Positions 4,194-52,423 of a stretch of DNA of 60,417 nt are shown here, in pieces. Made by a program: the position numbers and the translations under genes. Position 1 is the first letter of the stretch; each line of letters begins with the position of its first letter. The notes under the pieces were generated by a model. That model did no database searches and was not told where the DNA came from. It was given only the letters and a program-made list of their open reading frames with translations. The stretch comes from an uncultured Pirellulaceae bacterium. GTDB taxonomy: Bacteria > Planctomycetota > Planctomycetia > Pirellulales > Pirellulaceae. The stretch is taken from positions 1 through 60,417 of the forward strand of contig CAZUJM010000008.1 in the NCBI GenBank assembly GCA_964620405.1, given 5' to 3'.

Positions 4194-5126
4194 ATGCCCC
4201 ACGACGACTCCGCCAGCCCGGGAACGCGATTGCGAGCAGCGGCCGCGGGCGGCTGCCTGCAGGTTCCCGGAGCGCCCAACGCGCTGATGGGAAGGCTGAT
4301 CGAGCAGGCCGGCTTTCCCGCCGCGTACCTGTCCGGCGCCGCTTTTTCCGCTGGTACGCTTGCCCTGCCCGACATCGGACTCTTCACCCTCAGCGAACTG
4401 GCCCAGCAGACCACATGGCTTACCCGACGCGTGCGGATTCCTGTGATCGTCGATGCTGACACGGGCTTCGGCGAAACGCTGAACGTGGAGCGTACGGTGG
4501 TGGAACTGGAGGCGGCGGGCGCGGCGGCGATCCAGCTGGAGGACCAGCAGATGCCGAAACGCTGCGGGCACCTGTCCGGCAAGCAGCTGATCGAAGCCGA
4601 CGCGATGTGCCTGAAGATCCGCGCGGCCGTGGCGTCGCGCCGTGATCCGGGCCTCGTGATCCTGGCGCGTACCGACGCGCGTGGCGTGACCAGCTTCGAG
4701 GATGCCGTCGCGCGGGCCCGAGCGTATGTCGCGGCGGGAGCCGACTGGATCTTCCCGGAAGCGTTGTCCGGTGAAGAGGAGTTTGCTCGCTTCGCGCAGG
4801 AAGTGCCGGTGCCGCTGGTGGCGAACATGACGGAGTTTGGCAAGTCGGACCTGCTGCCGATCGACGTTTTCCGGCGGCTCGGCTATGCGGCCGTCCTCTA
4901 TCCTGTCACGCTCCTGCGCGCGGCCATGCATGCGGCCGCTGATGTGCTCGATACGATCGCCCGCGACGGCTCGCAGAAAAACCACCTGCCCCGCATGCAG
5001 ACTCGCCAGCAGCTCTACGACCTGCTGGGCTACGAGGGTTTCGAAGAAAGGGATCGCGCCTACTTCGGCCACGCGACTTCCCCACCCCCAGGAGAATCCC
5101 GCGGAACGGGAGCCAAGCCATCATGA
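4194..5126 (+). CDS. prpB: methylisocitrate lyase (PEP mutase/isocitrate lyase superfamily)
   Basis: Family motifs are present: VPGAPNAL..AGF.A.YLSGA, IVDADTGFG, the catalytic-loop-like KRCGHLSGK, and LARTDA. ATG 4194 was chosen (MPHDDS..). The gene is coupled to the next one by an ATGA overlap. Confidence 0.85.
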   Translation: MPHDDSASPGTRLRAAAAGGCLQVPGAPNALMGRLIEQAGFPAAYLSGAAFSAGTLALPDIGLFTLSELAQQTTWLTRRVRIPVIVDADTGFGETLNVERTVVELEAAGAAAIQLEDQQMPKRCGHLSGKQLIEADAMCLKIRAAVASRRDPGLVILARTDARGVTSFEDAVARARAYVAAGADWIFPEALSGEEEFARFAQEVPVPLVANMTEFGKSDLLPIDVFRRLGYAAVLYPVTLLRAAMHAAADVLDTIARDGSQKNHLPRMQTRQQLYDLLGYEGFEERDRAYFGHATSPPPGESRGTGAKPS

Positions 5127-12580: not shown

Positions 12581-13954
12581 TCACAGCAGTTCGGCGATGG
12601 GCTCGCCATCCGGCAGGATCGGCATCGGCCGGCCGCGGTGGTCGAGCAGGTTCTGATGGTAGTCGATCCCCAGGTGGCGAAAGATGGTGGCCCAGAGGTC
12701 GTTCGGCGAGAGCGGCCGATCTTTCGGTTCTTCGCCGCGTGCGTTCGTCGATCCAACGACCTGCCCCATGCGAAGACCACCGCCCGACACCAGCATCGAC
12801 ATCGCCTGCGGCCAATGGTCGCGGCCCGGCTGCCGGATGCCCGTTTGCGTCCCCGTCTGGTTCTCGATCCGCGGCGTCCGGCCGAACTCCCCCGTCACCA
12901 CCAACAGCACGCGCCGATCGAGGCCCCGCGCGTAGATATCCTCAATTAAAGCCGTCACGCTCTGGTCATAGATCGGGAAACGGACTCGGGCGTCGCGGAA
13001 CAGGTCGCAGTTCACGGCGTGCGAATCCCAGTTATAGGTCCCCTCCTTCAGGAAAGGAACGCCCGACACATACGGGTTCTCCAGCACCACGGTCACGAAG
13101 GGACAACCGGCCTCCACCAGTCGCCGGGCCATCAGCAGCCGATAGCCCCAGGCGTGGCGACCGTAACGATCAATCAGCTTTTCGGACTCGCGCGAGAAAT
13201 CAAACGCCTCGCGCACGCCCCGTCCCGTCAGCAGGTTCGCCGCGTTGTGGCTCAACGAATCCATCGCCTGCATGCTGCCCGAACCGTCGAGGTCGCGACG
13301 GATGCGATCGAGCCCCTGCAACAGCGAGCGACGATCGGCCAGGCGGTTCTCGAAGTTCGCGGCCAAGGACAGGTTCTGGATCTCGAAACCCGCTTCGCCC
13401 GGATCGCCCTCCACGGTGAACGGCGCGTAGGCGGACCCCAGGTAGGCGGCCCCCAGGCTGAAAGTGTCGATGCCCCCGCGGCCGCGGTCGGTCATCAGCA
13501 CATAGTCCAGCGGCACCTCGCGCGTCGAGGGCAACATCCGCGCGATCATCGAACCGCAGGCGGGGTAGTCGTTCACGAACCCCGTCGGTTCCTTCGGATC
13601 GCGGCCCGTCATGAACCGTTTGTGTCCACCACCATGATCGGAAAACGTGTGGTGCACGGAGCGAATCAGGGAGTAGCGATCGGCCAAACGCGTGTGCAGC
13701 GGCAGCAGTTCACAAACGTCGATCCCCGGTACGTTCGTCCGCACCGGCCGGAACTCGCCTCGATAGTCCGAGGGCGCGTCCGGCTTCATGTCGTACATCT
13801 CCATGTGCGGCGGACCGCCTGGGAGCCACACGAAGATACAGGCAGGCGGTTCTTCCGACTGGCCGGCGCCCCACGACTGCCTGGCCATCAACTGGCCCAG
13901 CGTCAGTCCGCACGCCGCCAGGCCACCGACCTGCAGGAAAGCCCGACGCGGCAT
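12581..13954 (-). CDS. DUF1501 domain-containing protein (sulfatase-like fold, Tat signal)
   Basis: MPRRAFLQVGGLAACGL (twin-arginine-like) is followed by ..IFVWLPGGPPHMEMYDMKPDAP..EFRPV.T.VPG..VCELLP..A...SLIRSV.H....H and the C-terminal GRDHW. This is characteristic of planctomycetal DUF1501 proteins. An alternative start is at 14011. Confidence 0.85.
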   Translation of the reverse strand: MPRRAFLQVGGLAACGLTLGQLMARQSWGAGQSEEPPACIFVWLPGGPPHMEMYDMKPDAPSDYRGEFRPVRTNVPGIDVCELLPLHTRLADRYSLIRSVHHTFSDHGGGHKRFMTGRDPKEPTGFVNDYPACGSMIARMLPSTREVPLDYVLMTDRGRGGIDTFSLGAAYLGSAYAPFTVEGDPGEAGFEIQNLSLAANFENRLADRRSLLQGLDRIRRDLDGSGSMQAMDSLSHNAANLLTGRGVREAFDFSRESEKLIDRYGRHAWGYRLLMARRLVEAGCPFVTVVLENPYVSGVPFLKEGTYNWDSHAVNCDLFRDARVRFPIYDQSVTALIEDIYARGLDRRVLLVVTGEFGRTPRIENQTGTQTGIRQPGRDHWPQAMSMLVSGGGLRMGQVVGSTNARGEEPKDRPLSPNDLWATIFRHLGIDYHQNLLDHRGRPMPILPDGEPIAELL

Positions 13955-14717
13955 GGGCCCTCGACAGGCTACGCCCGCTACCCCCGCGCTGTCGCTTGCT
14001 GCTCTTGCCATCGTTCAGCCCCAATCCCACCCTTCAGAAGACACCGCAGGTCCCACGGGGCCGCGAAAAAAGACTGCCCGCTAAACCGGGTCGCATTATA
14101 GCCGCCAAGCGTGGGTAGATCCAAGCAACAGGGACTGGCGATTCACAACCGGTTTCCGCCCCGCTGCCCCCACCGCGCCGTTCCGCTCCAATCACTACCC
14201 GACGTGTGCACATTGCCGCAGCCCCTCCCTAAACTTCAATGCTCCGGAAGCATTCCCAAAGAGTCCACAGCGTTCTCCATGCACCGACGACAAGTGGCTC
14301 CGGAGGCCCCATCGCCCTGGCAGAAGATCACTAAGTGTACAGAGAGCAGGTCGCGATCGCATCACTGTCGCGGATGCGTGCATCAAGCTCGAGAAAGTGT
14401 CCGCTATTTCGCAGGGTAGATCTCCACCTATGCGAGTGCCCCCCCCTAATGACTCCATCAGGAAAGCACATTGGTCCCACAGGTCACGTCATATTGCGTG
14501 TGTCTGCCCCGACCGGACTTTACAGATACAACTTTTTTGATGTGCGGACTTTAAAAGAGTCATGGCGAACTTTAATTGGAACCGTATAATACGGGCGTGA
14601 TTTACATTTATGTGAATTCGCTAGTTAGTCGTCGGGAATTTGGAACCGCCTGACGGAACCACTTAAGAAATCCCTACCGGAACAATGAGCGATTGCTTAA
14701 GAAAAGGAGAATGAGGT

Positions 14718-25053: not shown

Positions 25054-28000
25054 TCAGGGCGCGGAGCCGCCGACAGCCACCCCATCGCCGGCCGTTGAGC
25101 CATCCGCCGCCGCCTCATCCGCCACCGTCACGCGCGTGACGGCCGAGGCCTCGTCCAGCGGGATCGCCGCTGCCGAAGTCGTACCGCCGGGCCAGGCCAC
25201 TTCCAATCGCAGTCCCGTCGCGTCGGCCGGTACGGAGAACCACTGCGAACTGGACGCCTGCGACAGGTAGCCTCCACCCGCCGTCACTTCGCGGACCTGC
25301 GGCGTCGATCCATCCCCCAGCAGTTTCAAGCGGGCGCCGACCGCCGTCGGATTGCCCGCTCTCCCGCGCAGATCCACCTTGACCCACCGCCGCTTCGCCC
25401 CCGCCGCCGGATCGCCGGCCATCTGCCACGCGCGCCAGGCACCGTCGTTGACGCCCACGAGGAAATCCGGCAAGCCATCGCCGTTCAGTTCCGTGAGGGC
25501 CAGGCACTTGGCATCCCCGCCCTCCACCAGCCCCGTACTGCCCGGTTCCTGCGGTTGCCAGCCGCCGCGGCCATCGCCCAGCATCAGCAGGCTCACGCCG
25601 CCATCCATGCGGCCCGTCTCCCGTTGCGGCGAGTAGGAGTTCTGCGCGAGGTAGAGATCGAGCTGCCCATCGCCGTTGATGTCGACCAGTTCGGCACCGA
25701 AGGCCGGAGCGATCTGGGCGATGCGAGGCAGCGGCCGGAACTCCCACGCCTGCCCCGCGCCCGGATTGACCAGCACCCCCGACTCCAGCGTGTTGGCATC
25801 GAACCGGTGCGCCTTCTCCAATCCCTCGGGCGTGTAGATCTCCTGCAGCTGCGCGACACCAAACTCCGTGAACGTCTTGAAGCGATCCTTCAGGAAGGGC
25901 ATGGCGTTCGACGAACAACTGCGCCCGCGCACCGGGAACAGCTTCTCGCCCTCGTACTCCGACTCGACAATCTGCATCGCGCCCGACTTATCGAAGTCCC
26001 CGTAGTAGATGCTCGTCGGATGGTCCGCGCTGGCGTGGTACTTCGTGTTCAGCCCACAGTTGGTGACGACGAAGTCCATGTCGCCATCACGATCGACGTC
26101 GCCCGCGCGAATGCCGTTCCACCATCCCAGGCGGCTCGCCAGCCCCAGCGATTCCGTGACCTCGGCCAACGCCTTGCCGCCGTCGTTACGCAGCGCGCGG
26201 ACGGGCCCCCATTCCGTGGCCAGCCACAGATCGAGCCAGCCGTCTTGGTCGGTGTCGGTCCAGGTTGCGCCCGATACCATGCCGGCCTGCGCGAGAGCCG
26301 GAGCAACTTCGGCCGTGACATCCTGGAAGCGTCCGCCCTCGTTGCGCAGCAGCGTGCTGACAGGCGCCAGCGGATAGCTGGCCGGCTTCAGGCGTCCGCC
26401 CACGAACAGATCGAGGTCGCCGTCGCGATCGTAGTCGGCGGCGGCCACCACGCCGTTGCTGGTCGTCTCGCGCGGCAACGCTTCCTTGTCGTACTTGAAC
26501 GCACCTCCCTCATTTCGATAGAGCCGATCCTGCTGCCGCGAATCGCCGGCCGGGATCTCCCCCGAGCCGCTGGCCACATACAGATCCATGTCGCCATCGC
26601 CATCGCAGTCCAGGAACACGGCTCCCATGTCCTCGCGGTCCTTATGGTCGGCGAAGGCGCGTGTCTTCGCCACGGCGTGGCCATCCTTGCCGCTGACCAC
26701 CAGCTGTCCCTCCTGCCCCGCCGCGCCGCCAAGAAAGAAGTCGTCCAGGCCATCGCCGTTGATATCGGCCACGGCGACACCCGGCCCCAACTGCGACAGC
26801 TTCGCGGGCAGCAGCGGCTGCAGCTTGTAGTCGTCAAACGGCGTCTCCCGGTGCACCAACTGCAGCCGCTTCAGCGTCGCAGCCTCCTCAAACTTCACCG
26901 TCGCCATGTCCGCGTTCGCAGCCAGCGTGCCGTGCAGCGTCCCCGCCACGGCTGGCCCCACCGCCGCTCCCGTATCCGGCTCCTCAATCCGATGCAAACG
27001 CCCCGTCTCCAGGTCGTTCACCACCTGCACTTCGCCGCTCGGCCAGTGAATCGTCACCTGCTCGGCCTTCTGCTGTTCGCCAACCCCGAAGTGCAGCACC
27101 AGTTCGCTCGTCGAATTCCAACCGCGCGTCGAGGAAAGGTAGCGGGTCTGTTCGATACCACCAGCCTTCAACCGCACGAGCGCCCCGAGTCCCTGCTGGT
27201 TGCTGCGCTGGCCCGCCAGCTGGATCCGCACGCTCTGGCCCTCGGTGCTGTTGTTGCGATAGACCTGCGCCGGGCGATCCATGTTGTTGAGAATCAGGTC
27301 CAGGTCGCCGTCCGCATCGAGGTCTGCGGTCGCGCCGCCGAAGCTCACGCCCAGGTGGTCGAAGCCCCACTGCCGGCCCACGTCCTCGAACTGCAGGTCG
27401 CCCCGATTGCGGAACAGGCGGTTCAAGTCGCGACGATAGTCCTGCTTCCGCCAGAAGGCGAAGAACTCCGGCGATCCCTGCTTGAACTGCTGCTTGGCTT
27501 GATCGTTCAGGTCCGAGTTGGTGAAGTCGCGAAAGCTGCCGTTCGTGATGAACACATCTTCCCAGCCATCGTTGTCGAGGTCCTCGAATCGAGCCGTCCA
27601 GGTCCAGTCGGAAGCCTCCAGGCCGGCGATGAAGGCGGTTTCGAGGAAGCGATCGGAACCGGAGTTCACGAAGAGCGTGTTGCGCGGATACTGGCGGGGC
27701 TGGCCGTATTCCAGGAACCAACCGCTGGAACTCATGTCGCCCATGCCGACCTTCTGGCGGAAATGGTCCGAACCGGCCATGTCGGTCGCCATCAGGTCGA
27801 GCCGCCCGTCGCGATTCGCGTCGCAGATGTCGACGCCCATGGAAGACCAGGGCGTATGTGGCAGCGAGCTGGGCGCAATGTCGGTGAACGTGCCATCGCC
27901 GTTATTGCGGTAGAGCCGATCGGGCCCCCAGTAGTCGTTCGACACGTAGACATCGGGCCAGCCATCCCCGTTGAAGTCCCACCACACGGCGGCCTGCCCG

Positions 28001-28866
28001 ATGTCGGCCCCCTGGATGCCCGACGACTTACCCACCTCGGTGAACTTCACGTTGCCGTTCGCGTCCTTGCCCTCATTGCGAAACAGTCGATCGAACTGCC
28101 CCGCCTCCACCTGCTTCGCCCGGTCGCCCGGCATGTACAGCAGTTGCCAGTACTCGACAAGTTCCTCAAGCACCACGGGACGCCCATCGACAAAGCGGAC
28201 GCGGAACGGCTTGTCGGGCGGCAGGCCGGCCGTCACCAGGTAACCGTCCAGGTCGCCGTCTCGGTCGTAGTCGCAGAACGCCATCATGACGCTCGCGCCG
28301 CGAAAATTCAGGCCGAACCCGTTATTCGCCAGCTTGAACTTTCCCGAACCGTCGTTCAGATAGAGTCGGTTCGCGGCCGCATACGCGCACTGGTAGAGAT
28401 CCACATCGCCGTCGTTGTCGATATCGACAAACGACGCGCCGGTGTGCCAGTAGTCGTCATCGCGCAGTCCCGCGGCATCGGTGATGTCCTCGAAGCGGAA
28501 CCCGCCCGCGTTCCGATAGAGCCGCGCGCCTCCCGAGGGGCTGGTCAGGTAGAAGTCAGGCAGGCCATCGCGGTCGATATCGGCCACGGTCACGCCGCCG
28601 CCAACATTCTGCGAATAGAAGATGCGGTCGTACGACGCGGGCTTGTCCCAACGCGTCACGAAGTGAACGCCGGTCTCCTCGGGTGTCAGCGGCGTGAACA
28701 TCTTGTCCGCACCGCCCGCGTCCCGCTGCGTGACGCGCGTTCCCTGCGGATTCGGACCGCCGCTCTCCGGACCGCCGCTCTCCGCTCGGCATCCGACCAG
28801 CAGCAACATCCCGCAGACTACCCCACAGAGCGTCCCGCAGACCATCCACCGCCCTAGCATTTGCAT
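25054..28866 (-). CDS. FG-GAP/VCBS-repeat + ASPIC/UnbV (CRTAC1-like) lipoprotein, double-length (two repeat+ASPIC units)
   Basis: The signal and lipobox read ..MLLLVGCRAE. There are many D.D.DG..D FG-GAP motifs and two ASPIC-type segments (GALVRLKAGGIEQTRYLSSTRGWNSTSELVLHFGVG.. and GARLKLLGDGSTPQVREVTAGGGYLSQASSSQWF..). Confidence 0.85.
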   Translation of the reverse strand: MQMLGRWMVCGTLCGVVCGMLLLVGCRAESGGPESGGPNPQGTRVTQRDAGGADKMFTPLTPEETGVHFVTRWDKPASYDRIFYSQNVGGGVTVADIDRDGLPDFYLTSPSGGARLYRNAGGFRFEDITDAAGLRDDDYWHTGASFVDIDNDGDVDLYQCAYAAANRLYLNDGSGKFKLANNGFGLNFRGASVMMAFCDYDRDGDLDGYLVTAGLPPDKPFRVRFVDGRPVVLEELVEYWQLLYMPGDRAKQVEAGQFDRLFRNEGKDANGNVKFTEVGKSSGIQGADIGQAAVWWDFNGDGWPDVYVSNDYWGPDRLYRNNGDGTFTDIAPSSLPHTPWSSMGVDICDANRDGRLDLMATDMAGSDHFRQKVGMGDMSSSGWFLEYGQPRQYPRNTLFVNSGSDRFLETAFIAGLEASDWTWTARFEDLDNDGWEDVFITNGSFRDFTNSDLNDQAKQQFKQGSPEFFAFWRKQDYRRDLNRLFRNRGDLQFEDVGRQWGFDHLGVSFGGATADLDADGDLDLILNNMDRPAQVYRNNSTEGQSVRIQLAGQRSNQQGLGALVRLKAGGIEQTRYLSSTRGWNSTSELVLHFGVGEQQKAEQVTIHWPSGEVQVVNDLETGRLHRIEEPDTGAAVGPAVAGTLHGTLAANADMATVKFEEAATLKRLQLVHRETPFDDYKLQPLLPAKLSQLGPGVAVADINGDGLDDFFLGGAAGQEGQLVVSGKDGHAVAKTRAFADHKDREDMGAVFLDCDGDGDMDLYVASGSGEIPAGDSRQQDRLYRNEGGAFKYDKEALPRETTSNGVVAAADYDRDGDLDLFVGGRLKPASYPLAPVSTLLRNEGGRFQDVTAEVAPALAQAGMVSGATWTDTDQDGWLDLWLATEWGPVRALRNDGGKALAEVTESLGLASRLGWWNGIRAGDVDRDGDMDFVVTNCGLNTKYHASADHPTSIYYGDFDKSGAMQIVESEYEGEKLFPVRGRSCSSNAMPFLKDRFKTFTEFGVAQLQEIYTPEGLEKAHRFDANTLESGVLVNPGAGQAWEFRPLPRIAQIAPAFGAELVDINGDGQLDLYLAQNSYSPQRETGRMDGGVSLLMLGDGRGGWQPQEPGSTGLVEGGDAKCLALTELNGDGLPDFLVGVNDGAWRAWQMAGDPAAGAKRRWVKVDLRGRAGNPTAVGARLKLLGDGSTPQVREVTAGGGYLSQASSSQWFSVPADATGLRLEVAWPGGTTSAAAIPLDEASAVTRVTVADEAAADGSTAGDGVAVGGSAP

Positions 28867-28967: not shown

Positions 28968-31127
28968 TTGGGCCCTCCCGCGATCAGAATGCGAAACGTA
29001 CCCCGACACCCTCGGCCACCGGGATACCCCGGCGCCAGCGACGGCGCTCGGCCAGTTCGCCCCGTCTTTGCCCGTGTGTTCGGGGCCCGTGTGTTCGGGG
29101 CCCGTGTGTTCGGGGCCCGTGCGTTCGGGGGCTCAATCTTCCTCGCGTTCCTCTGCCTTCAGCCGGGCTGCCGGCCCGCGAACGTTTCAGACACCCCCAG
29201 CGATTCGACCGGCACCGCCCGGCCCGCGGCGGCAGCCGTAAACCCGGCCGCAAATCCAGCCACATCCGCAATCGGGCCCGCGGCGACAGATCAGGATCCG
29301 GTGCGTCGACTGGTGGCGGAGGAGGAACTGATCCTGGAACTGACGCCTGTCATGCAGGGACTCGAACGCGACCTGCGGAACCTGCAGCTTCCCGCCGCCG
29401 ACGGGCGCGGCCTGCTGACCAACGATTGTCAGCTCGTGGACTGCCGCCCGCAGGACGCCTCCCCCGCCGAATCTTCTTCCGACGCGGCGTGGCATTTCGT
29501 CGCCGATGACCAGTCCCAGTCACTTCACCCCGACCTGCGACTCTGGAAACCGTTCTTCGAGTCGCTGGCCTACGTGGAACACGCGAAGCTGTCGCTCGTG
29601 AAGGGACGCTTCCTCGATTCCGGCTGGCGGCGATTCGAAACGGAAGTAAGCCTGTCGGGACTCGCGCGTGGCCACGATCGACGCTGGCTCGACCTTCGTG
29701 GCTCGATGCGTCTAGAGTGGACACGCGACGCGGAACCGTCGCCCGCCGCCACCGTCCAAGCCACCCCAGCCACTGCTCCTCCGGCCCCCGACAACGCCCC
29801 GATGACGGGCTGGCGGATCGCTGCGTGGCGCACGGAATCCCTGGTGCTGACGGCTGCCGATCGGCTGCAGTTTCGGGAGGTGCTGGGCGAAGCCGTGCCC
29901 GATGCGCGGCAGCGACAGTCGCTCCTGGAGTCGCAGCACTGGCTCTATGCCGTGAACCATTTCTATCCCAAGCGCGCTGCGCGCGTCGACGACGACATCA
30001 ACGATGCGCGATTCTTCCCCATCTCGACGGCCTACCATCCGGGGCTGTCGGTCGTCGACGTCGACCGCGACGGCTGGGACGATCTCTATGTGATGGATCG
30101 CTGGGGCCAGAACCGCCTGCTGCACAACCAGGGCGATGGCACCTTCCGCGAGGCCTCGGCGTCGCGCGGACTGGATGTCAACGGCCGCAGCAACGCGGCC
30201 GTCTTCGCGGACTTCGACAACGACGGAGACGCCGACCTGATGCTGGCCCGCGGCATGGAACGCAGCCTGTACCTCGTCAACGAAGACGGTCGCTTCGTCG
30301 ATCGTTCCAGCGAGCGTGTCGCGTTTCCCCTGCCGATGGAAGCCACCTCCGTCTCGGCCGCCGACTACAACGGGGACGGCCTGCTGGACGTCTACTTCTC
30401 CACCTACCACCAGGACGACATCAGCCGCCGGCTCGATGCCGACCTGGCGGATCCAAGCCACCGCATCCATGCCACGCTCACTCCCGAACACTCGGCGGAA
30501 CTCCAGCGGCGTTTCCGCGCCGAGACGCGGTCGTTCATCAGCCAGGTCGGGCCCCCGAACATCCTGCTGGTCAACCAAGGCGAGGGCCGTTTCGCGCTGG
30601 CGCCCGAAAACGAGCAGGTCGCCGTCTGGCGCAACTCGTTCCAGGCCACCTGGTGCGACTACGACCAGGATGGCGACCCGGACCTCTACGTGGCCAACGA
30701 TTTCGCGCCCGATAGCCTGCTGCGCAACGACGGCGCCGGGGGCTTCCGCGAAGTGTCCCGGGAAAGCGGTATCACGCGACTGGGGTTCGGCATGGGCGCG
30801 AGCTGGTCCGACTTCGACAACGACGGACAGCATGACCTGTACGTAAGCAACATGTACAGCAAGGCCGGGCGACGCATCACGCGCGGCGTCGGCCAGCTCG
30901 ATCCCCGCATCGCGCAGCTGGCCGACGGCAACTACCTCTATCGCTACGACGGGCGGCAGTTCCACCTCGTCTCGGGCCTCACTCCCCCGGCTCTGACGGT
31001 CGCCCGAGCCGGCTGGGCCTGGGGCGGACAGTTCTTCGACGCCGACAACGACGGGTTCCAGGATCTCTACGTCTCCAGCGGATACTACACGGTCCCCGCG
31101 CCCTACGAGACCAAGATCGATTTGTGA
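28968..31127 (+). CDS. FG-GAP-repeat (CRTAC1-like) protein, N-terminal 719 codons, ending at an in-frame TGA that may be recoded (see findings)
   Basis: FG-GAP motifs are present (VVDVDRDGWDDLYV, FADFDNDGDADLML, AADYNGDGLLDVYF, WCDYDQDGDPDLYV, WSDFDNDGQHDLYV, FFDADNDGFQDLYV). The N-terminal region is paralogous to that of 32346..34934. The ASPIC domain expected after the repeats is missing from this ORF and appears in the next same-frame ORF. Confidence 0.8.
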   Translation: MGPPAIRMRNVPRHPRPPGYPGASDGARPVRPVFARVFGARVFGARVFGARAFGGSIFLAFLCLQPGCRPANVSDTPSDSTGTARPAAAAVNPAANPATSAIGPAATDQDPVRRLVAEEELILELTPVMQGLERDLRNLQLPAADGRGLLTNDCQLVDCRPQDASPAESSSDAAWHFVADDQSQSLHPDLRLWKPFFESLAYVEHAKLSLVKGRFLDSGWRRFETEVSLSGLARGHDRRWLDLRGSMRLEWTRDAEPSPAATVQATPATAPPAPDNAPMTGWRIAAWRTESLVLTAADRLQFREVLGEAVPDARQRQSLLESQHWLYAVNHFYPKRAARVDDDINDARFFPISTAYHPGLSVVDVDRDGWDDLYVMDRWGQNRLLHNQGDGTFREASASRGLDVNGRSNAAVFADFDNDGDADLMLARGMERSLYLVNEDGRFVDRSSERVAFPLPMEATSVSAADYNGDGLLDVYFSTYHQDDISRRLDADLADPSHRIHATLTPEHSAELQRRFRAETRSFISQVGPPNILLVNQGEGRFALAPENEQVAVWRNSFQATWCDYDQDGDPDLYVANDFAPDSLLRNDGAGGFREVSRESGITRLGFGMGASWSDFDNDGQHDLYVSNMYSKAGRRITRGVGQLDPRIAQLADGNYLYRYDGRQFHLVSGLTPPALTVARAGWAWGGQFFDADNDGFQDLYVSSGYYTVPAPYETKIDL
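29071..29130. repeat. 4 x 15-bp in-frame tandem repeat (cccgtgtgttcgggg; the last copy has one mismatch) encoding (ARVFG)x3-ARAFG in the N-terminal/signal region of the CDS
   Basis: Direct reading gives copies at 29071-29085, 29086-29100, 29101-29115 and 29116-29130. Confidence 0.9.
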
Positions 31128-31135
31128 AGTAACTT

Positions 31136-31156
31136 CTGGCGCGCGGTCGTGCGCAG
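31136..31156 (+). promoter_or_regulatory. Hairpin 8 nt downstream of the in-frame TGA; candidate bacterial SECIS element
   Basis: The RNA is CUG(G)CGCGC-GGUC-GUGCGCAG: 8 pairs (one of them G-U), one bulged G, and a GGUC apical loop. Confidence 0.35.
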
Positions 31157-32318
31157 TGACCAAACCTTGTCACCCTCCGGATTCCGCGGCTCGGAGCAGT
31201 GGCAGACCAATCCATTCACCAACGAACGGCAGGCGCAGATCGACCGCCGCTACGAACAGGGGCGCGTGGAGTCGGAGGCAGGCACGCAGTGGCACTCGTT
31301 CAGTGGCCATGAGCGGAACTGCTACTTCCACAACCTGCACGGGCGTGCGTTTCGCGATGAGTCGACCCTTTCGGGCCTGGACCAAGTGGCCGACAGCCGG
31401 GCTTTCGTCGTCTGGGACTACGACCACGACGGCGCCGCCGATATCGGGCTGGTCAACGCCAACTATCCGCTGCTGAACCTGTACCGAAACCAGGCGCGGG
31501 ATGTGTCCGGCACTGCGGCCCGCGGCCACTTCGTCGCTCTGAGGTTCCACGGCGGCAACACGACGAACCAACCTCGCCGCGACCTGTCTGCGCGCGACGC
31601 CTACGGCGCCACGGTGCGCATCGAAGCGGGCGGCCTGAAGCTCCTGCGTGAACATCGGTGCGGCGAAGGCTTCGCCGCCCAGAACAGCGCGACGCTGCTG
31701 GTCGGCCTGGGCGAAGCCTCGCGCATCGAGCGTCTCTCCGTGCGCTGGCCGTCCGGCCGCACCGACACGTGGCAGGACCTGCCCGTCGACCAACTGCTGG
31801 AACTGCACGAAACGCCCGACACCTCCGCCGATGCCCGGACGCTCCGCATCGCCGACTACGCCCCCGCCCCACGCCCGGCGACCGTCGACTCCAGCCCCCT
31901 GCGTCCCCTCGGGCAACTCGATCTCGCCGCCTGCCTGCCAGCCGACCTCCCCACCGACCGACCGCTCTACCTGCTCACCACCATGGCCACCTGGTGCGAG
32001 GCCTGCCTGCGACACCAGGCGCCCCTGGTCAATCTGGCCGCGCGCCACGCCGATCAGTTGGTGCTCTGTGGAGTGCCGGTCGACCCGATTGAAACGCCGG
32101 AAGAACTGGAGCGTTACGCTGAACGAGCACGCCCCGCGTACCGCATCCTGAGCAGCATCGATCCCGAGCAGCGCGACCGCGTCGTGCAGGTGATCCGCCG
32201 CGAACTCAAGACCGAATCCATTCCCTGCAGTGTCCTCGTGGACTCCCAGGGCCGGATCCTCGAGGCGTTCTACGGCACGCCAACCGCCTCCGACATCGGA
32301 CGCTGGCTGATGCGGTAG
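31149..32318 (+). CDS. ASPIC/UnbV domain + TlpA/thioredoxin-like (WCEAC) domain; probably the C-terminal continuation of 28968..31127 rather than an independent gene
   Basis: It is in the same frame as the upstream ORF, and the listed start is a GTG with no Shine-Dalgarno sequence. It contains VVWDYDHDGAADIGLVN, then ASPIC-type HFVALRFHGGN..DAYGATVRIEAGG..GEGFAAQNSATLLVGLG..RLSVRWPSG. A thioredoxin-fold segment follows: LYLLTTMATWCEACLRH...VLVDSQGRILEAFYG. Confidence 0.75.
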   Translation: MRSDQTLSPSGFRGSEQWQTNPFTNERQAQIDRRYEQGRVESEAGTQWHSFSGHERNCYFHNLHGRAFRDESTLSGLDQVADSRAFVVWDYDHDGAADIGLVNANYPLLNLYRNQARDVSGTAARGHFVALRFHGGNTTNQPRRDLSARDAYGATVRIEAGGLKLLREHRCGEGFAAQNSATLLVGLGEASRIERLSVRWPSGRTDTWQDLPVDQLLELHETPDTSADARTLRIADYAPAPRPATVDSSPLRPLGQLDLAACLPADLPTDRPLYLLTTMATWCEACLRHQAPLVNLAARHADQLVLCGVPVDPIETPEELERYAERARPAYRILSSIDPEQRDRVVQVIRRELKTESIPCSVLVDSQGRILEAFYGTPTASDIGRWLMR

Positions 32319-32345: not shown

Positions 32346-34934
32346 TCACGGAATATCGACGCGATGGTAGCGATCGACAGCCGGCTTCTCGAGCGTTTCG
32401 ACGCGACCGGATGGCAGGCGGATCTCCACGCGCTGCACCTCCGTCGCCGAGCCCAAGCCAAAATGCACCTCCGCGGCATGCTGGGCGTGGATCGAATCGC
32501 CCGCCACGACCACGCCGATGCGACGTTTGCCATCTACCTCGGTCAGCACCACCGTCGCGCCCAGCGGTGACTCCTTGCCCGGACGCTCCACCAACTGCAG
32601 ACCGATCCAATGCCCTGCGGCCGGCAGTTCATTGCGATAGACATGCAGCAACTGTCCGTCGCGCCAACGATCCTCGACCACCAGCAGGTCCATGCGTCCA
32701 TCGCGATCCAGGTCGTTGCTGATCACCGCCCGGCCGTCATACTCGTCGCCCACGCCCATGAGGAACCCCAGGTTCACGAACGACTCGCCACCGCGATTCA
32801 CCAGCAACGCGTTCTTCTGGTAACCATCCCAAGACTCCGAGCGATCATAGTAACCCTTCATCGAATCGTTGAAGACCTTCAGCACGTCGCGGTTCGGTTC
32901 GGAGGTACCATCGTAGATGTCGTGACACCAGAAATGCGAACAGTGGTCCTTGGTGGACGCGCCGCTGGAGTGGCCGTTGGCGACGTAAATTTCCGGAAAG
33001 CGATCGTTGTCGACATCCAGCGACGAAGCGCCCCAGGTCCAGCCCGTCCGCGCGACCTCGTCGCGAAACGGCGGCTGCGCGAATGCCGGCGTCTGTCCGG
33101 CTCCCTGGGCCAGGTACATGCGATTCCCGTAGCCCCTCCGCGAACGCATCATGTGGATGTCGGCCCGGTCTCGACGCCCCAGTCGCATGTGCTCCAATCG
33201 CCGCGCCGTCGTCGACGCCATCCCCGTGACAAAAAAGTCCAGCTGCCCATCCACGTTGTAGTCGCTGAACGTGGCCGCCATGCCGAACAGATGGCGCTCG
33301 TCGACACTCGAATCGGTGACGTCGGCGAAGTAGCCCTTGCCGTTGTTGTAGTAGACATCGACGCCCGCGAAGTCGCTGACCACCAGCAGGTCCAGGTCCC
33401 CGTCCTCGTCGAGATCCACGAACGAACCACCGTACGAACGACGGTTGCGTTTCGCCGCCAGCCCCGCTTCCTCCGTGGCCGGTTCAAACCGGCCCGTCCC
33501 GTCGTTCAGCAGCAGCCATGCGGGGAAGCCGTCGTTGGCGTCGTAGTAGGGCGACGGCATCTGGCCGCCGACGTAGGAGATCTTGTACTGCCCGATCCAG
33601 ACGTCGAGGTCCCCATCCTTGTCGATGTCGCCCGCCGCGATCACCTGCGGCTGCTTCAGCGGTCCGCCGCCGCGAGCACGTCCCAGCGGCTCCCGCGAGA
33701 ACCGCCCGCGCTCATCGCCCAAGTACAGCAGCAGGTCGCCCGCTAGCCCCGGCCGCAGGTAGTCCAGCCGACCGTCGCCATTCAAGTCGGCCAGCAGCCC
33801 CGCCTCGAAGCCTCGTTCCCAGTGCGGCGAAAAAGGCTCCTTCTCAAACCGCATCTGCCCGCGGTTCCAGAAGATCTCGTTGCTGCCCACGACCAAGATC
33901 TCGGGCAGTCCATCGCCATCCAGGTCCTCCACATGCACGGGCTGCGCGCCGGAACGCGCGTCGGCCTGCGCGTGGTCGACCGTCAGCACCTCGCGAAACG
34001 CCACCTCCCCCTCGCGCTCATACGCCACCAACCGCGTGGCATCCACGCGTTCCGGCACGGGCAGGCCGTCGGCGTCGCGTTCCGACCGCCAGTCCACCTG
34101 GATCTCGCCCGTCACCACCCAGCGCAACGGCTTCTTCTCGTGCGTCCCGTACAGTGACAGATTGATGGCCGACCTGGCACGGCCATCCGGCTGCGGATCG
34201 AACCGCGCATGATGCCACTCCGTCTGCACGATGCGGAATCCCCGGTCGCGCAGCGAAGCCAGCAGCGTGGCCCAGCCCGCGTCGTCCAACTCCCGCGGCT
34301 GCTCGCCCAAAACGGCCTTCCGCGCGTTCCAGACCACCGACTGCCAGTCTCCCGGCTCGCCCACGCGCAGCGTTCCCAGCGGCTGCGCGGCCAGCACCGC
34401 AAACGGATCGCCGCCCTTGCGCACGTCGTTCTGGATCAACCGATCCCACAACCTCACCAGCGCGCTTTCGTATTCTTGCGCCAGCCGTTCATTCTTCCAG
34501 ACCGTCTCGTCACGCTGGCGGCGCAACTCCGAGAGACTCACCGGACGCGAGAAATCCAGGTTGTCGGGCAACTCCGCCGGATCCGCATCGGCAGCTTCCG
34601 CCGGATGGCCCTTGGCACCCACTGCGGCGCCTTGATTCGCGGCGTCTTGATTCGCAGCCTGTTCCGTCGCCGCGGCTTCGACCGTGTTCTCCGGCGACGC
34701 CGCAATGGGCGCACTCACGGCCGAATCCGAGGGACCAGGAGCAGCTGCGGTCGTCGGGGCGCCTGGCGGCGCAGCAGCCGGCGACTCACCAGGCGATTCC
34801 GCAGTCCGCTGACATCCGGCCAGCCCCAAGCAGACGCCCAGCCACACGCCCCGCCACACGCTTCGCGCCGAGACTCCCGAACCACCGCGCACCGTTCCCG
34901 CAGAACCCATTTCGCTTCTCCCCGGATCCCTCAC
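32346..34934 (-). CDS. FG-GAP-repeat + ASPIC/UnbV (CRTAC1-like) lipoprotein
   Basis: The lipobox reads ..GVCLGLAGCQ. FG-GAP motifs are present (VEDLDGDGLPEILV, LADLNGDGRLDYL, AGDIDKDGDLDVWI, FVDLDEDGDLDLLV, FSDYNVDGQLDFFV, SLDVDNDRFPEIYV, SNDLDRDGRMDLLV). The ASPIC-type C-terminus is HWIGLQLVERPGKESPLGATVVL....VHFGLGSATEVQRVEIRLPSG. Confidence 0.85.
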   Translation of the reverse strand: MRDPGRSEMGSAGTVRGGSGVSARSVWRGVWLGVCLGLAGCQRTAESPGESPAAAPPGAPTTAAAPGPSDSAVSAPIAASPENTVEAAATEQAANQDAANQGAAVGAKGHPAEAADADPAELPDNLDFSRPVSLSELRRQRDETVWKNERLAQEYESALVRLWDRLIQNDVRKGGDPFAVLAAQPLGTLRVGEPGDWQSVVWNARKAVLGEQPRELDDAGWATLLASLRDRGFRIVQTEWHHARFDPQPDGRARSAINLSLYGTHEKKPLRWVVTGEIQVDWRSERDADGLPVPERVDATRLVAYEREGEVAFREVLTVDHAQADARSGAQPVHVEDLDGDGLPEILVVGSNEIFWNRGQMRFEKEPFSPHWERGFEAGLLADLNGDGRLDYLRPGLAGDLLLYLGDERGRFSREPLGRARGGGPLKQPQVIAAGDIDKDGDLDVWIGQYKISYVGGQMPSPYYDANDGFPAWLLLNDGTGRFEPATEEAGLAAKRNRRSYGGSFVDLDEDGDLDLLVVSDFAGVDVYYNNGKGYFADVTDSSVDERHLFGMAATFSDYNVDGQLDFFVTGMASTTARRLEHMRLGRRDRADIHMMRSRRGYGNRMYLAQGAGQTPAFAQPPFRDEVARTGWTWGASSLDVDNDRFPEIYVANGHSSGASTKDHCSHFWCHDIYDGTSEPNRDVLKVFNDSMKGYYDRSESWDGYQKNALLVNRGGESFVNLGFLMGVGDEYDGRAVISNDLDRDGRMDLLVVEDRWRDGQLLHVYRNELPAAGHWIGLQLVERPGKESPLGATVVLTEVDGKRRIGVVVAGDSIHAQHAAEVHFGLGSATEVQRVEIRLPSGRVETLEKPAVDRYHRVDIP

Positions 34935-48358: not shown

Positions 48359-51300
48359 ATGTCGCAACCGCAGTCCGTTCGCCGCCGCTTCGGTGACCAG
48401 CCACGCCGCGCGATCCTCCTGGGATGGCTGCTCGGTGTCGCATTGACTTGGACTCTCGTGACGCCCCACGCCTTCCCGATCGCCAGTGCCCAATCGGCCA
48501 GCGTTCCATCGGCCAGTGCGTCCGGGCAAGAAACCCGCGAAGCAGCCGACGACGGGGCGCAGGCTGCCGATTCCGCCCCGGACGCAGCCTCCGCGGAACC
48601 GTCGCCCGAGGTGGCCAGCGACGCGAACGCGGCGGCCCCGGAACCAGCGGAAACGCCCGACGATCCCGTCGAGGGCAACTCCGAAACACGCCCGCCGTCC
48701 CTCGGCATTCCCTGGCGTGGTGCGCCGGTGGAGGCCGGTCCGGGGGCTTTGGTGGTGGAGCAGGCGCCGCGGATTCTGTTCACGCGCGACCAGCAGGGAA
48801 GACTTCGGCCGCTGGTGAACATTCCCTGGGAGCGGATCCAGGCGTTGCTGGATGCCGAGGACACCGGCGACGTGCAACCGCTCGCGCCGCGTTTCCAGAT
48901 CACGAACCTGACGGCGCAGGGACAGGTGGCTGGCGACACGGTCGAGATGTCGCTGGAACTGCGGATCTCGCTGCCCGCGCCAGCGGCCGGCGACGGGCGC
49001 GTCGCCAGCTGGACTCTCCTGCCGCTGCGTCTCCCCGATGCCTCGCTCATCGCGCAACCGGAGCATGAGGGGCCGGGCAAGTTGTTCGTCGTCTACCGGG
49101 AGATGGAAGGCTACCAGGCGTGGATCCATCACGAACGGGCGGGCGAGCATCTCATCCGGCTGCGTGTCGCCATGCCACTGGACGAGGCGTTGGGCGCAAC
49201 GCGGCTGCAGTTGCTGGTACCCGCCGCGACGCAATCGCGTCTCGAACTCGACGTGCCCGGTGAACAGTTGGCGGTGGAGGCCGATGGGGGGCGTCGCGCG
49301 ACGGTGTCCGCCGCGCCCGACGGACGCTCGCGCATCGCCGTCTCCGACCTCCGCAACCAACTGACGCTGGCCTGGACCAAGGGCGGCGATGTCGTCGCGC
49401 AGCAGCCCGCCAACTTCGATGTGCTCGGCGACATCCGCGTGAGTGTCGATGGGCCGGGCGCGATTCGCAGCCAGGTCTCGTTGGAGTTGCAGAGTTACGG
49501 TCGTCCGATCGAACGCTTCCTGCTGCGTCTTCCGCCCCACACTTCCATCGTATCGGGCAACCAACCCGGCTACGAGCTGCGCGAGCGGACGGTGGCCGCC
49601 GGCGCACAGGAAGCGTCGTCCGCCGGGGAGCCGCGCGAAGTCGAGATCACGTTGCTGAAACCCGCGGCCCAGGCGCGACTGCAGCTGACGACGCAGACCA
49701 GCCATCCGGAGGGAAGCGAGGCGCGGACGTCCGTGGGCGTCTTCGAAGTGCCGGGCGCGATCCGCCAGTCGGGACAGATCACGCTCCTGGCCAGCGAAGA
49801 CTGGCGCGTCGACTGGACGCTGGGGCCTTCCGTGCGACGCATCGCGACGCCGGACACGCTGGAGACGACCGGCGACCGGCGTCCGCTGGCGACGTTCCAG
49901 TATTTCCGCCAACCATGCCGCTTGGAGGTCGAAGCGCGTCCGCAGGAGACGCGTACCACCGTGCGGCCGCGTTATCGAATGCATGTCGAGGAAGATCGCG
50001 TCTCGCTCGAAGCCCAGTTCGACTACCGTCTGCGCGGCGCACGCATCGGTGCGCTGGGCTGCTCGCTGAACGGCTGGATCCTCGACGACATCGGCCCCAG
50101 CGGATCGGTCGAGGACGCGCCGGTGGAGGACGCGCCGCCCGAGCGTGGCACGCCGGATTCAGGCGAGCCCGGATCGGACACCGCCGCGAACGAGGCTTCT
50201 CGGCAGGTCCGGCTGCGGCTCACGCGGCCCACCACGGGTGACATGACGTTGACACTGCGGCTCCACCGGCCCGTGACGGAGCGCAGCGGCACCTTGCGAC
50301 TGGCCCTGCCCTCGCCGATGGCGGACGGAGTGATCCCCGGCACGCTCCTTGTCTCCGCCGGCGACGCGGTTGTCCTCGACTTCCGCTCCGCCGAAATGTC
50401 CGGCCTGGTCCCGGACGCCCGCACGATCAACGACCCCGCCGACGGGCCCACGTTGGCTCCGCCCTCCGCCACGCCAGGCGAACGCAGCTCGGCCGCGTTC
50501 CCGCCGACGACTCCCGGCAGCCCGCTCGGCTCCGCGCCGCTCGAGCCGGCCTCGTCCGCGTCCGCCTTTCCCGCCGAAGCGTCCGCCACGGGCACCGCCT
50601 TTCGCTTCCTGGGCGATCGCGCGGCAGGCGAACTCGTCATGGACTACGAGGTCCGCGAACAGGAGATCCGAGTGCGCATGGACAGCGAACTGGAAGCGAC
50701 CGGCGATGTGCTGCAGGTCACCCAGCGCATCGGCTATCGCGTCCTGTACCGTCCGACGTCGCAGTTGAAACTCGACGTCCCCCGGCCGCTTTTTGAACTG
50801 CTGGCGAATCCTCGTTACCGTCCGCAGGTCGAACTGCGACTCGACGGCCAGACGCTGGGGCGTGAATCGTTCGAGGATGTCGCCGATTCGGTCGACGCCC
50901 TGCGCAACATCGTGCCGGTGAACCTGCCGCTCCCCCGCCCTCGACTGGGTAACCTGGAACTGCTGCTGCGTTTCCCCTGGCCGCTGCGTCCCACCACCTC
51001 TGCCAACTCCCTGTCCGTACCGCTGGCCACTCCGCGCGAAGGACGGCTGCTTTCGAACCTCGCCACGCTCCGCGACTCCAGCCCATTCCGACTCGAACCC
51101 ACCCGCGACGTCGGCTGGGTGCGTGAGGCGTCCCTGGGCGGCAGCGAGCCGAAGTCGGGACTGCAGCTCTCCTCCGCCCAGCGCACCAGTTCCCTGCAAC
51201 TCCAAGTCATCGCCTCCCAGCAGCCGACCGAGACCACTCCGGCCGCGGCCAGTTCGACCACCATCCAGCGCGCCTGGATGCAGACGTGGCTGACACGTGA

Positions 51301-52423
51301 GCGTCAGCATGAGCGGGTCGTGCTGCGGATCACGACGGCCGCGAGCCGGATCCGCGTGCGCACCGCGGTGAACGTCCGAACGCTGAACGCGCTGGTCGAT
51401 GGACAGGCGGCGGAAGCGACGCGCGACGAACGATCTTCCCAGGAGTGGACAATTCCTCTCTCCAGTCCGCAGGCGGGCGAACATACCCTGGAACTGTTCT
51501 TGGAGTACACCTCGCGGCAGCCTTCGGGGAACATGCGATTCCAGTGGCCCGAATTGGCCGATGCCTCCGCGCCCCGACGCTGGTTCTGGCAGCTGGTCGT
51601 GCCGCAGGATGAACATCTCTGGTCGAGCGATTCGCTGCTCAGTTCCGCCAATCGCTGGCAGCGCGAGGGAATCGTCTGGCGTCGCGAGGCGGTGCAGTCG
51701 CAGGCCAGCCTCGAGGAGTGGACGGAAGCGACCTCGCAACCGCCGATCCCCCCAGGCGTGCACTGCTATCTGTTCAGCTCCTTCGATCCTGCGGGCACGT
51801 TCGCGGTCCGCACCTGCAACCGCCGCACACTCGTCTACGGATTCTCCTTCCTCGCGCTCGCCGTCGCCTGCGCATGGACCTACCTGTCCATCCTCCGCCA
51901 TCCGCTCGCCACCATGGCTTGCAGTGCGTTGCTGGCCGCCACGGCCTGGCGTTACTCCGAACAAGCGGCTCTCGTGGCCCAGGCCAGCGTCCTTGGACTC
52001 GCACTGGCCGCCGTCCCCGCGTTCGTGCGCCGCTGGGGAGGCACGGCAGAGCCCACAGGACGTCGCTCCTGGACAGGACGCGGCACCGACGGACGCCTGG
52101 TCGACTCGCGACCACCAGAACTTCGCAGCACCGATGTGCACAGGCCCGACTCGCAACGCATCGACACGCGTCGCGCCGATTCCCACCGCGGTGACGCGCT
52201 GCCGTCCGACCCCGTCAGCAACGGCTCGCACCGGCACCTCGCGCAGGAACTGGAACGAGCGGCCCAGGAAGGATCGGCGCCGCCCACGACCATCCGAGTT
52301 CCCGGCCAACGCGACTCGCATGCGCCGATGCATGCCGCGGATGGCCCCGCTACCGATCATCCCGCGCCGGATACCCCTCCGCACGACACCTCCGTGTCCG
52401 GCGTGCCGGAGTCCCGACCATGA
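48359..52423 (+). CDS. giant membrane-anchored hypothetical protein (module 1 of a paralogous series)
   Basis: An N-terminal signal or anchor is present (RRAILLGWLLGVALTWTLVTPHAFPIASAQS). About 1,150 aa of balanced, beta-rich sequence follows, then a C-terminal cluster of hydrophobic helices (LVYGFSFLALAVACAWTYL.., MACSALLAATAW, ASVLGLALAAVPAFV) and a charged tail. The antisense ORFs are Arg/Gly/Pro-rich and not protein-like. Confidence 0.8.
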   Translation: MSQPQSVRRRFGDQPRRAILLGWLLGVALTWTLVTPHAFPIASAQSASVPSASASGQETREAADDGAQAADSAPDAASAEPSPEVASDANAAAPEPAETPDDPVEGNSETRPPSLGIPWRGAPVEAGPGALVVEQAPRILFTRDQQGRLRPLVNIPWERIQALLDAEDTGDVQPLAPRFQITNLTAQGQVAGDTVEMSLELRISLPAPAAGDGRVASWTLLPLRLPDASLIAQPEHEGPGKLFVVYREMEGYQAWIHHERAGEHLIRLRVAMPLDEALGATRLQLLVPAATQSRLELDVPGEQLAVEADGGRRATVSAAPDGRSRIAVSDLRNQLTLAWTKGGDVVAQQPANFDVLGDIRVSVDGPGAIRSQVSLELQSYGRPIERFLLRLPPHTSIVSGNQPGYELRERTVAAGAQEASSAGEPREVEITLLKPAAQARLQLTTQTSHPEGSEARTSVGVFEVPGAIRQSGQITLLASEDWRVDWTLGPSVRRIATPDTLETTGDRRPLATFQYFRQPCRLEVEARPQETRTTVRPRYRMHVEEDRVSLEAQFDYRLRGARIGALGCSLNGWILDDIGPSGSVEDAPVEDAPPERGTPDSGEPGSDTAANEASRQVRLRLTRPTTGDMTLTLRLHRPVTERSGTLRLALPSPMADGVIPGTLLVSAGDAVVLDFRSAEMSGLVPDARTINDPADGPTLAPPSATPGERSSAAFPPTTPGSPLGSAPLEPASSASAFPAEASATGTAFRFLGDRAAGELVMDYEVREQEIRVRMDSELEATGDVLQVTQRIGYRVLYRPTSQLKLDVPRPLFELLANPRYRPQVELRLDGQTLGRESFEDVADSVDALRNIVPVNLPLPRPRLGNLELLLRFPWPLRPTTSANSLSVPLATPREGRLLSNLATLRDSSPFRLEPTRDVGWVREASLGGSEPKSGLQLSSAQRTSSLQLQVIASQQPTETTPAAASSTTIQRAWMQTWLTRERQHERVVLRITTAASRIRVRTAVNVRTLNALVDGQAAEATRDERSSQEWTIPLSSPQAGEHTLELFLEYTSRQPSGNMRFQWPELADASAPRRWFWQLVVPQDEHLWSSDSLLSSANRWQREGIVWRREAVQSQASLEEWTEATSQPPIPPGVHCYLFSSFDPAGTFAVRTCNRRTLVYGFSFLALAVACAWTYLSILRHPLATMACSALLAATAWRYSEQAALVAQASVLGLALAAVPAFVRRWGGTAEPTGRRSWTGRGTDGRLVDSRPPELRSTDVHRPDSQRIDTRRADSHRGDALPSDPVSNGSHRHLAQELERAAQEGSAPPTTIRVPGQRDSHAPMHAADGPATDHPAPDTPPHDTSVSGVPESRP

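Follow-up and report, generated by a model that had tools for sequence, protein, structure and literature searches.

Bacterial selenoprotein genes that carry their selenocysteine insertion sequence (SECIS) inside the open reading frame (ORF) are known as a class. In Escherichia coli, the minimal SECIS is a 17-nucleotide (nt) upper stem-loop located 11 nt from the UGA, with a G and a U in the loop (PMC8659212), and the bacterial SECIS rule places the apical loop 16–37 nt from the UGA, with a conserved G in the loop (PMC10778597). Kim et al. (PLoS One, 2016) listed ASPIC/FG-GAP selenoprotein candidates in the planctomycetes P1 and P2 (PMC4807772, Table S9), both of which have selA, selB, selC, and selD (PMC4807772, Tables S8 and S9). 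These candidates consist of two adjacent gene calls split at an in-frame UGA, bSECISearch predicted a SECIS in three of the four, and their closest uninterrupted homolog has Gly at the corresponding column; they were named “hypothetical” and appear in a supplementary table only (PMC4807772). The present study indicates that a gene of this family, with a predicted selenocysteine (Sec) codon at 31125–31127, occupies positions 28968–32318 of contig CAZUJM010000008.1 of assembly GCA_964620405.1, from an uncultured Pirellulaceae bacterium, of which we analyzed a stretch of 60,417 nt (the window). Specifically, we consider it quite probable that the locus is one gene for an exported lipoprotein, in which the UGA would be read as Sec by means of a hairpin just downstream and the selenol would be regenerated by a fused WCxxC domain. 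An earlier note on this DNA had held that an FG-GAP/ASPIC-thioredoxin selenoprotein was undescribed, which the listing by Kim et al. makes not entirely correct: domain family, UGA split, SECIS calls, and non-Cys (Gly) homolog are the same. That report contains no alignment, covariation, distribution, thioredoxin domain, or coupling of such a domain to Sec (PMC4807772). The family had therefore been flagged once, in a supplementary table, and what is new here is the breadth of its distribution, the covariation support for its SECIS, the dominance of Sec where Cys forms are scarce, and the joint retention of Sec and the thioredoxin CxxC.

Other described systems resemble parts of the predicted protein. 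Thioredoxin-fold selenoproteins (CxxU/UxxC oxidoreductases and Prx-/AhpC-like proteins) are also bacterial and also serve thiol redox, and several of them are present in the same planctomycete genomes, P1 and P2 (PMC4807772). In those proteins, Sec replaces an active-site Cys and Cys homologs are abundant, whereas in the family studied here the thioredoxin site stays CxxC, the Sec would belong to a different domain that lies ~265–290 residues upstream, and few homologs have Cys. In pneumococcal Etrx2 with MsrAB2, and in Neisseria PilB (Trx-MsrA-MsrB), a WCxxC domain of the ResA/TlpA type is fused to or partnered with a single-chalcogen catalytic domain outside the cytoplasm, which is the arrangement that we propose. 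We infer this analogy for a different partner, a CRTAC1-like propeller/ASPIC module without known enzymology. Vertebrate CRTAC1 (PDB 9etn) shares the FG-GAP propeller and the ASPIC domain but has neither Sec nor a thioredoxin domain.

Two ORFs of the plus strand, 28968–31127 and 31149–32318, have a common frame, and the translation of 28968–32318 holds one stop only, the TGA at 31125–31127; the 21 nt separating the two ORFs read SNFWRAV in frame. The earlier note had described this junction, with FG-GAP repeats upstream and a UnbV_ASPIC domain downstream of the stop, and both descriptions were borne out, the former by the sequence and the latter by Pfam. The features of the locus are the following.

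28968–31124, plus strand: N-terminal part of the coding sequence (CDS), with a lipobox-like signal, an N-terminal domain without known function, and an FG-GAP β-propeller (Pfam; signal peptides of orthologs)
31125–31127, plus strand: predicted Sec codon, an in-frame TGA (TGA at the same column in 39 of 39 homologous DNA sites)
31139–31154, plus strand: core SECIS-like hairpin (5′ arm GCGCGC, 31139–31144; loop GGUC, 31145–31148; 3′ arm GUGCGC, 31149–31154)
31128–32318, plus strand: C-terminal part of the CDS, including the stop TAG at 32316–32318 (SNFWRAVVR after the TGA is kept in interrupted and uninterrupted homologs)
31599–31799, plus strand: UnbV_ASPIC domain (Pfam PF07593, 1.1e-18, residues 158–224 of the downstream translation)
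31968–32258, plus strand: ResA/TlpA-like thioredoxin-fold domain (active-site motif WCEAC at 31992–32006; Thioredoxin_8 match below threshold)
32346–34934, minus strand: Cys-form paralog with FG-GAP and UnbV_ASPIC and without a thioredoxin domain (context, not part of the Sec gene)

Pfam assigns FG-GAP_3 (2.8e-37) and FG-GAP (3e-19) to the upstream part. The Thioredoxin_8 match in the downstream part is weak (24.4 bits, with a cutoff of 27); PDB thioredoxins match the C-terminal domain of the window's protein at E ~0.003, and orphan homologs of the downstream half carry PF00578, PF08534, or PF13905. The neighboring paralog at 32346–34934 is uninterrupted and, as had been noted, has Cys (TGT) at the Sec column (..KDH-C-SHFWC..). 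Its layout had been called exactly that of the joined gene; the FG-GAP plus ASPIC architecture is indeed shared, but the identity is not exact, because the paralog is encoded on the minus strand and has no thioredoxin domain.

The true start codon of the gene is probably downstream of 28968, since orthologs begin with lipobox-like signal peptides; candidate CDS starts are ATG 28989, or GTG 29076, 29091, or 29106. The joined protein had been put at 1116 residues ending in a domain with WCEAC. That motif is present, but the length is probably closer to ~1050–1100 residues. A 15-nt unit, GCCCGTGTGTTCGGG, is present in 4.1 copies at the 5′ end of the ORF (29070–29130) and encodes ARVFG repeats. 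Each unit supplies a GTG (29076, 29091, and 29106) just upstream of the lipobox-like signal, and the ortholog P0001 (91% identical) begins without the ARVFG repeats.

The distribution of the interrupted form was followed in proteins and in DNA. The joined translation with Cys at the stop served as protein query, and the best 120 matches were tabulated. Among them, 53 (41–91% identity; 610–720 amino acids [aa]) terminate at ..[VI]DL, one residue before the Sec column, where P0099 (1459 aa) terminates as well. The best 120 matches to the downstream half are all orphan C-terminal gene calls (120/120; 340–420 aa), most of which begin with M/V-R-[ST]-D, corresponding to the GTG located within the hairpin. 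Because gene callers end the protein at the TGA, public databases list it in two pieces. Genome and metagenome scans yielded 162 loci (1.8 Mb), in all of which the junction was searched by tblastn with 10 queries; weak matches to a single query proved to be FG-GAP repeat noise and were disregarded. A stop occupies the Sec column in 39 homologous DNA sites, and in all 39 it is TGA, with no TAA or TAG among them. Planctomycetota (Pirellulaceae, Mariniblastus, and others), Verrucomicrobiota (Akkermansiaceae and others), and Acidobacteriota/Pyrinomonadaceae are represented, with further sites in Gemmatimonadota, one proteobacterial metagenome-assembled genome, and metagenomes. The 39 sites form three subfamilies, ..DL-U-S[ND]FWRAVVRSD (the window's type), ..GDL-U-SFFWRQVVS, and ..KDT-U-SQFWRQVVT. 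Conservation continues immediately past the TGA, where S-x-[FLY]-W-R-x-V-V is homologous to the corresponding stretch of uninterrupted proteins, and the frames downstream of the TGA stay open for 200–845 aa in the loci.

Close relatives give the same picture at nucleotide resolution. A Logan assembly (L163, SRR8942263) matches the window at 99.9% identity over 12.7 kb, with an unchanged junction, and the TGA is carried by both L002 (~94% nt and 91% aa identity) and L001 (62% aa identity, on an 8.5-Mb NCBI contig of GCA_036704275.1). Over 30 nt beginning with the TGA, the window, L001, and L002 do not differ, whereas upstream of the TGA the window and L001 share 22–26 of 30 nt. Likewise, the window and L001 use the same codon at 10 of 10 positions from the TGA on, as compared with 3–6 of 8–10 in flanking blocks. 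Judged by these sequence comparisons, the locus is one gene that continues across a conserved UGA. A recent nonsense mutation (pseudogene) and a sequencing or assembly error, both of which the earlier note had kept as alternatives, would have nothing in their favor but the bare presence of a stop codon. The same junction is found in an independent assembly, TGA persists in orthologs at 91% and 62% aa identity, and the 39 TGA sites across phyla are followed by intact downstream frames that are conserved as protein. Because the TGA is shared across phyla and by an independent assembly, recent mutation and sequencing error are excluded, with a residual probability that we regard as negligible.

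Two further kinds of split were considered as recoding sites and rejected. Elsewhere in the window, the neighboring ORFs that share a frame (12581/12562 and 25054/25023) are separated by ordinary TGA stops with unrelated sequence after them. A split at 8556–8586 (minus strand) of L001, in the homolog of a 1270-aa double-module paralog, is out of frame and is likely a frameshift, pseudogene, or assembly error.

A hairpin accompanies the TGA. Its 6-bp stem begins at a fixed position, 11 nt after the TGA, and all six pairs are formed in 31 of 38 unique TGA sites. The loop is GGUC in the window's subfamily and GGUCG elsewhere, G22 never varies, and U23 is either constant or conserved to at least 90%. 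The apical loop begins 18 nt after the UGA, within the 16–37-nt range of the bacterial rule. In the sister subfamilies (22 sequences), 97% of cells are paired and 0 of 500 shuffles reach the observed values. Pair 18–28 occurs there as GU (8), CG (5), UA (5), and AU (4), with no mispairs, so that changes at the third position of the Arg codon are matched by changes at the first position of the codon that follows V-V. Pairing in the window's own subfamily (14 sequences) is 91.7%. Where homologs encode the same FWRQVV peptide but lack the TGA, at most five of the six pairs can form, and usually two to four. A covariance model, R1, built without the window's subfamily, matches 31125–31156 with 27.3 bits (E = 0.0028) as its sole match in the window, and over the 1.8 Mb of loci it returned no unexpected additional sites.

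The hairpin of the window thus consists of a conserved core that differs from the structure first drawn. The earlier note had proposed eight pairs with a bulged G and a GGUC loop; the 6-bp core and the GGUC are conserved, but neither the bulged G nor the outermost two pairs are, all of them being absent in L001, for example. It had also looked to orthologs for a conserved TGA and hairpin with compensatory changes, which the sister subfamilies supply, and to a covariance model of the site, for which R1 gives a match but Rfam no family. The apical loop of the E. coli fdhF element, which we take to read GGUC, would be the same as that of the window. Like the window's hairpin, the fdhF SECIS is a stem-loop inside the ORF that exposes G and U and starts 11 nt downstream of the UGA (PMC8659212). 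Collectively, these data support a SECIS-like element that covaries with compensatory changes and lies at SelB-type spacing. The proposal that the UGA is read through as Sec with the aid of this hairpin likewise gains strong support from the 39 of 39 TGA codons, the covariation, the spacing, the frozen synonymous sites, and model R1. A SECIS inside the reading frame would constrain the protein as well, and therefore the W-R-x-V-V-x codons would be fixed too.

The same data bear on two explanations that do without Sec. In the first, the locus would be two true genes: an FG-GAP lipoprotein ending at the TGA, and an ASPIC-thioredoxin protein whose separate translation would begin at GTG 31149, through either initiation or termination-reinitiation, with the hairpin serving coupling or mRNA stability. 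All public gene calls split the locus in this way, with the downstream part beginning at GTG 31149, inside the 3′ arm of the hairpin, and a GTG is always on hand because the V-V codons are conserved. Gene fission, however, would not fix TGA in 39 of 39 sites, and the seven codons from the stop to the GTG are conserved as protein and homologous to uninterrupted relatives. The GTG lacks a Shine-Dalgarno sequence and sits inside the stem, the hairpin strictly co-occurs with TGA, and the downstream product alone would have no signal peptide despite its ResA/TlpA domain of extracytoplasmic type. We therefore consider two separate genes very unlikely. In the second explanation, the hairpin would stimulate read-through with another amino acid, for example by near-cognate insertion of Trp, Cys, or Gly, for which the diversity of residues at this column in non-Sec homologs could be cited. 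Such read-through is extremely unlikely in view of the SelB-type geometry of the hairpin, with its 11-nt spacing and the G-U in its loop, and of the fact that neither TGG nor GGN replaces TGA in any Sec-type clade. Moreover, the related planctomycetes P1 and P2 combine such genes with a complete Sec machinery, and for three of their four ASPIC candidates a SECIS was called by bSECISearch (PMC4807772).

Reading of the UGA as Sec raises the question of what the residue does, and here the homologs are informative in two ways. First, full-length homologs among the best 120 have Glu at the Sec column in 63 cases and Cys (P0005), Ser, and Ala in one case each. The Glu forms are of a Verrucomicrobia type (..DL-E-SNLWRTMVR..); among the non-Sec loci, Ser, Ala, and Asn also occur, and Gly, Asn, or Asp in a more distant group. 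Cys forms include P0005, L149, and the neighboring paralog at 32346–34934. The classical Cys/Sec pairing invoked in the earlier note therefore exists but is rare, with 63 Glu to one Cys among the best 120 matches.

Second, the Sec column changes together with the thioredoxin site. A WCxxC motif is present ~265–290 residues after the Sec in 31 of the 31 TGA-type loci that have the domain and in 120 of 120 orphan fragments, and the Cys-type ortholog P0005 retains WCKSC; by contrast, CxxC is absent in 44 of the 47 Glu-type proteins having the domain and in all five Ser/Ala/Asn-type proteins, counts that are phylogenetically non-independent. These Glu, Ser, Ala, and Asn types retain the thioredoxin-like domain with a degenerate motif (TSSPSS, TASPAS, AAAPAA, TWSETM, and others). 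In a rough neighbor-joining tree, which is crude, Sec with CxxC is found in all three clades, the non-Sec forms are nested among them, and the Glu clade adjoins the Akkermansiaceae Sec form. This nesting suggests several coupled losses of Sec and CxxC from a Sec-bearing ancestor. The retention or loss of Sec together with WCxxC points to a redox relay between the two, and lineages with Glu, Ser, Ala, or Asn in place of Sec have probably given up the redox activity, since they lost the CxxC too.

Individual genes depart from this pattern or add to it. A Glu-type verrucomicrobial homolog (L005, 7348) has CVAC in its thioredoxin-like domain, possibly a remnant of an ancestor with Sec and CxxC. 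Five TGA-type genes end after the ASPIC domain; four of them (L011 4439, L012 7300, and L085 9306 and 11979) have a Cys at +2 (U-S-C), and the fifth, in L084, does not. L018 (7036) has a Cys at −1 (C-U). The Cys residues at +2 or −1 may be local resolving cysteines. Two TGA-type paralogs lie in tandem in each of L085 and L106.

The co-retention of Sec and CxxC also weighs on a third explanation, in which the UGA would act mainly as a selenium-dependent switch, yielding a full-length redox protein when selenium is present and a truncated propeller lipoprotein with a role of its own when it is not, with Sec chemistry secondary. The location of the UGA between the called FG-GAP repeats and the ASPIC/thioredoxin part would suit such a switch, as would the tolerance of the column for many residues in non-Sec homologs. 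We nevertheless consider it unlikely: the strict co-retention of Sec and the thioredoxin CxxC argues for Sec in chemistry, the sole Cys-type ortholog retains CxxC too, and the truncated product would probably be an incomplete fold, because part of the propeller and the ASPIC domain fall after the UGA.

A structural setting for a catalytic Sec, the reading that we prefer, was sought in an AlphaFold2 model of the Cys ortholog P0005 (predicted local distance difference test 84.4; predicted template modeling score 0.84). In this model, Cys657, the counterpart of the Sec, occupies the second position of a helix (656–667) that follows a 14-residue loop after a propeller strand, and the active-site Cys of the thioredoxin domain is likewise at a helix N-terminus. 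The N-terminus of a helix is the usual setting for a redox-active Cys or Sec. In the window's gene, the Sec would closely follow the last FG-GAP blade that Pfam recognizes and would precede UnbV_ASPIC. The best Foldseek match to the body of P0005 is murine CRTAC1 (9etn_A; E = 2.8e-26, TMt 0.69), and the C-terminal domain of P0005 matches ResA, DsbE, and TlpA (TMt ~0.63) as well as StoA and Etrx2. In a PDB profile search, 9etn_A is matched at E = 3.4e-31. The Sec segment falls outside the alignment with human and murine CRTAC1, which are therefore uninformative on the Sec site. The N-terminus in the window is lipobox-like (..FLAFLCLQPGC, Cys codon 29169), and orthologs begin with lipoprotein-type signal peptides (..LLTGC, ..LVGC); given these N-termini, the protein is probably exported.

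Several observations weigh against a Sec codon with a redox relay at this locus. Cys is rare at the column itself, and the residues found there in most non-Sec homologs (Glu, Ser, Ala, Asn, Gly, or Asp) are unusual counterparts of a catalytic Sec; the relay is drawn from co-occurrence, the counts of which perhaps reflect four to five independent losses. Covariation in the window's own subfamily is weak, with one double change, and 32 of 500 shuffles reach its paired fraction. Folded alone, 31125–31170 does not exceed dinucleotide shuffles in stability (z = 0.02); the significance of the hairpin therefore comes from comparison, and folding energy was dropped as evidence. Rfam contains no family that matches 31090–31220 at E up to 10 or the whole window at gathering thresholds. 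The conserved stem is a continuous 6-bp helix without the bulged U that is a SelB determinant in E. coli; the fdhF SECIS has this bulged U17, whereas the stem of the window is a plain, G+C-rich helix. Finally, Pfam and a tRNA scan found no selA, selB, selD, or tRNA-Sec within the 60-kb window, where the only tRNA is a tRNA-Ala and no further Rfam match was obtained.

The Sec machinery was also sought in the collected loci. Searches of the 1.8 Mb with E. coli SelD and SelA by tblastn, using approximate query sequences, gave nothing, and ARAGORN on all loci found a single tRNA-SeC, on L104, which has no TGA-type gene. This tRNA-SeC (L104, 1–98) is at the edge of the metagenome contig MDTE01032634.1, which also encodes a distant CRTAC1-like paralog without TGA.

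A mechanism can be outlined from these elements. The CDS from 28968, or a nearby start, to 32318 would encode a lipoprotein of ~1050–1100 residues, and the 16-nt stem-loop 11 nt after the UGA would act as a bacterial SECIS, bringing SelB and its Sec-tRNA(Sec) to the ribosome while it pauses at this codon. The selenol may then be the redox-active catalytic residue, a step of which we are less certain. Its oxidized form would be regenerated in cis by the WCxxC of the fused ResA/TlpA-type thioredoxin domain, and this domain would in turn be reduced by an extracytoplasmic reducing pathway. More broadly, and only tentatively, the family may be one of ancient, Sec-dominant, extracytoplasmic selenoenzymes built on a CRTAC1-like propeller/ASPIC scaffold instead of a thioredoxin fold, with in-cis recycling by CxxC, rare exchange of Sec for Cys, and a relay discarded together with the Sec. 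If this is true, it would be the first catalytic function for ASPIC/CRTAC1-like proteins, and an example that discovery pipelines based on Cys/Sec pairs systematically miss.

The family has been easy to overlook. It is not mentioned in the main text of the recent bacterial selenoprotein reviews, tools, and database papers searched, and the catalogues checked contain few or no selenoproteins for Planctomycetota, Verrucomicrobiota, and Acidobacteriota, to which a widespread selenoprotein family would now be added. Selenoprotein discovery pipelines demand Cys homologs, which accounts for the absence of this family from the catalogues; a Sec that aligns mostly with residues other than Cys is their blind spot (PMC12013277). 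Recognition of the Sec codon would also repair hundreds of public gene calls that are artefactual halves, now under names such as “VCBS repeat-containing protein” for one half and “ASPIC/UnbV domain-containing protein,” “peroxiredoxin,” or “thiol-disulfide isomerase” for the other. The co-retention of Sec and CxxC provides a testable hypothesis of function for bacterial CRTAC1-like proteins, which have none now.

The Sec gene is one of three adjoining FG-GAP/ASPIC paralogs: the 1270-aa double-module protein at 25054–28866 (minus strand), the Sec gene itself (plus strand), and the Cys form at 32346–34934 (minus strand). The same three-paralog arrangement is found in L001 and L002. In the Cys-form paralog of all three loci, the motif is C-SHFW-C, with a second Cys five residues later, where Sec forms have Arg, and it may be a self-contained dithiol site. 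Elsewhere in the window, three consecutive, slightly overlapping ORFs (1354, 518, and 2018 aa) at 48359–60007 (plus strand) have no Pfam match at 1e-5. At 4014–6229 (plus strand), a gene of the PEP_mutase/isocitrate-lyase family overlaps a gene of the citrate-synthase family by 4 nt in what looks like a methylcitrate-cycle pair, and a DUF1501 gene, typical of Planctomycetota, lies at 12581–14011.

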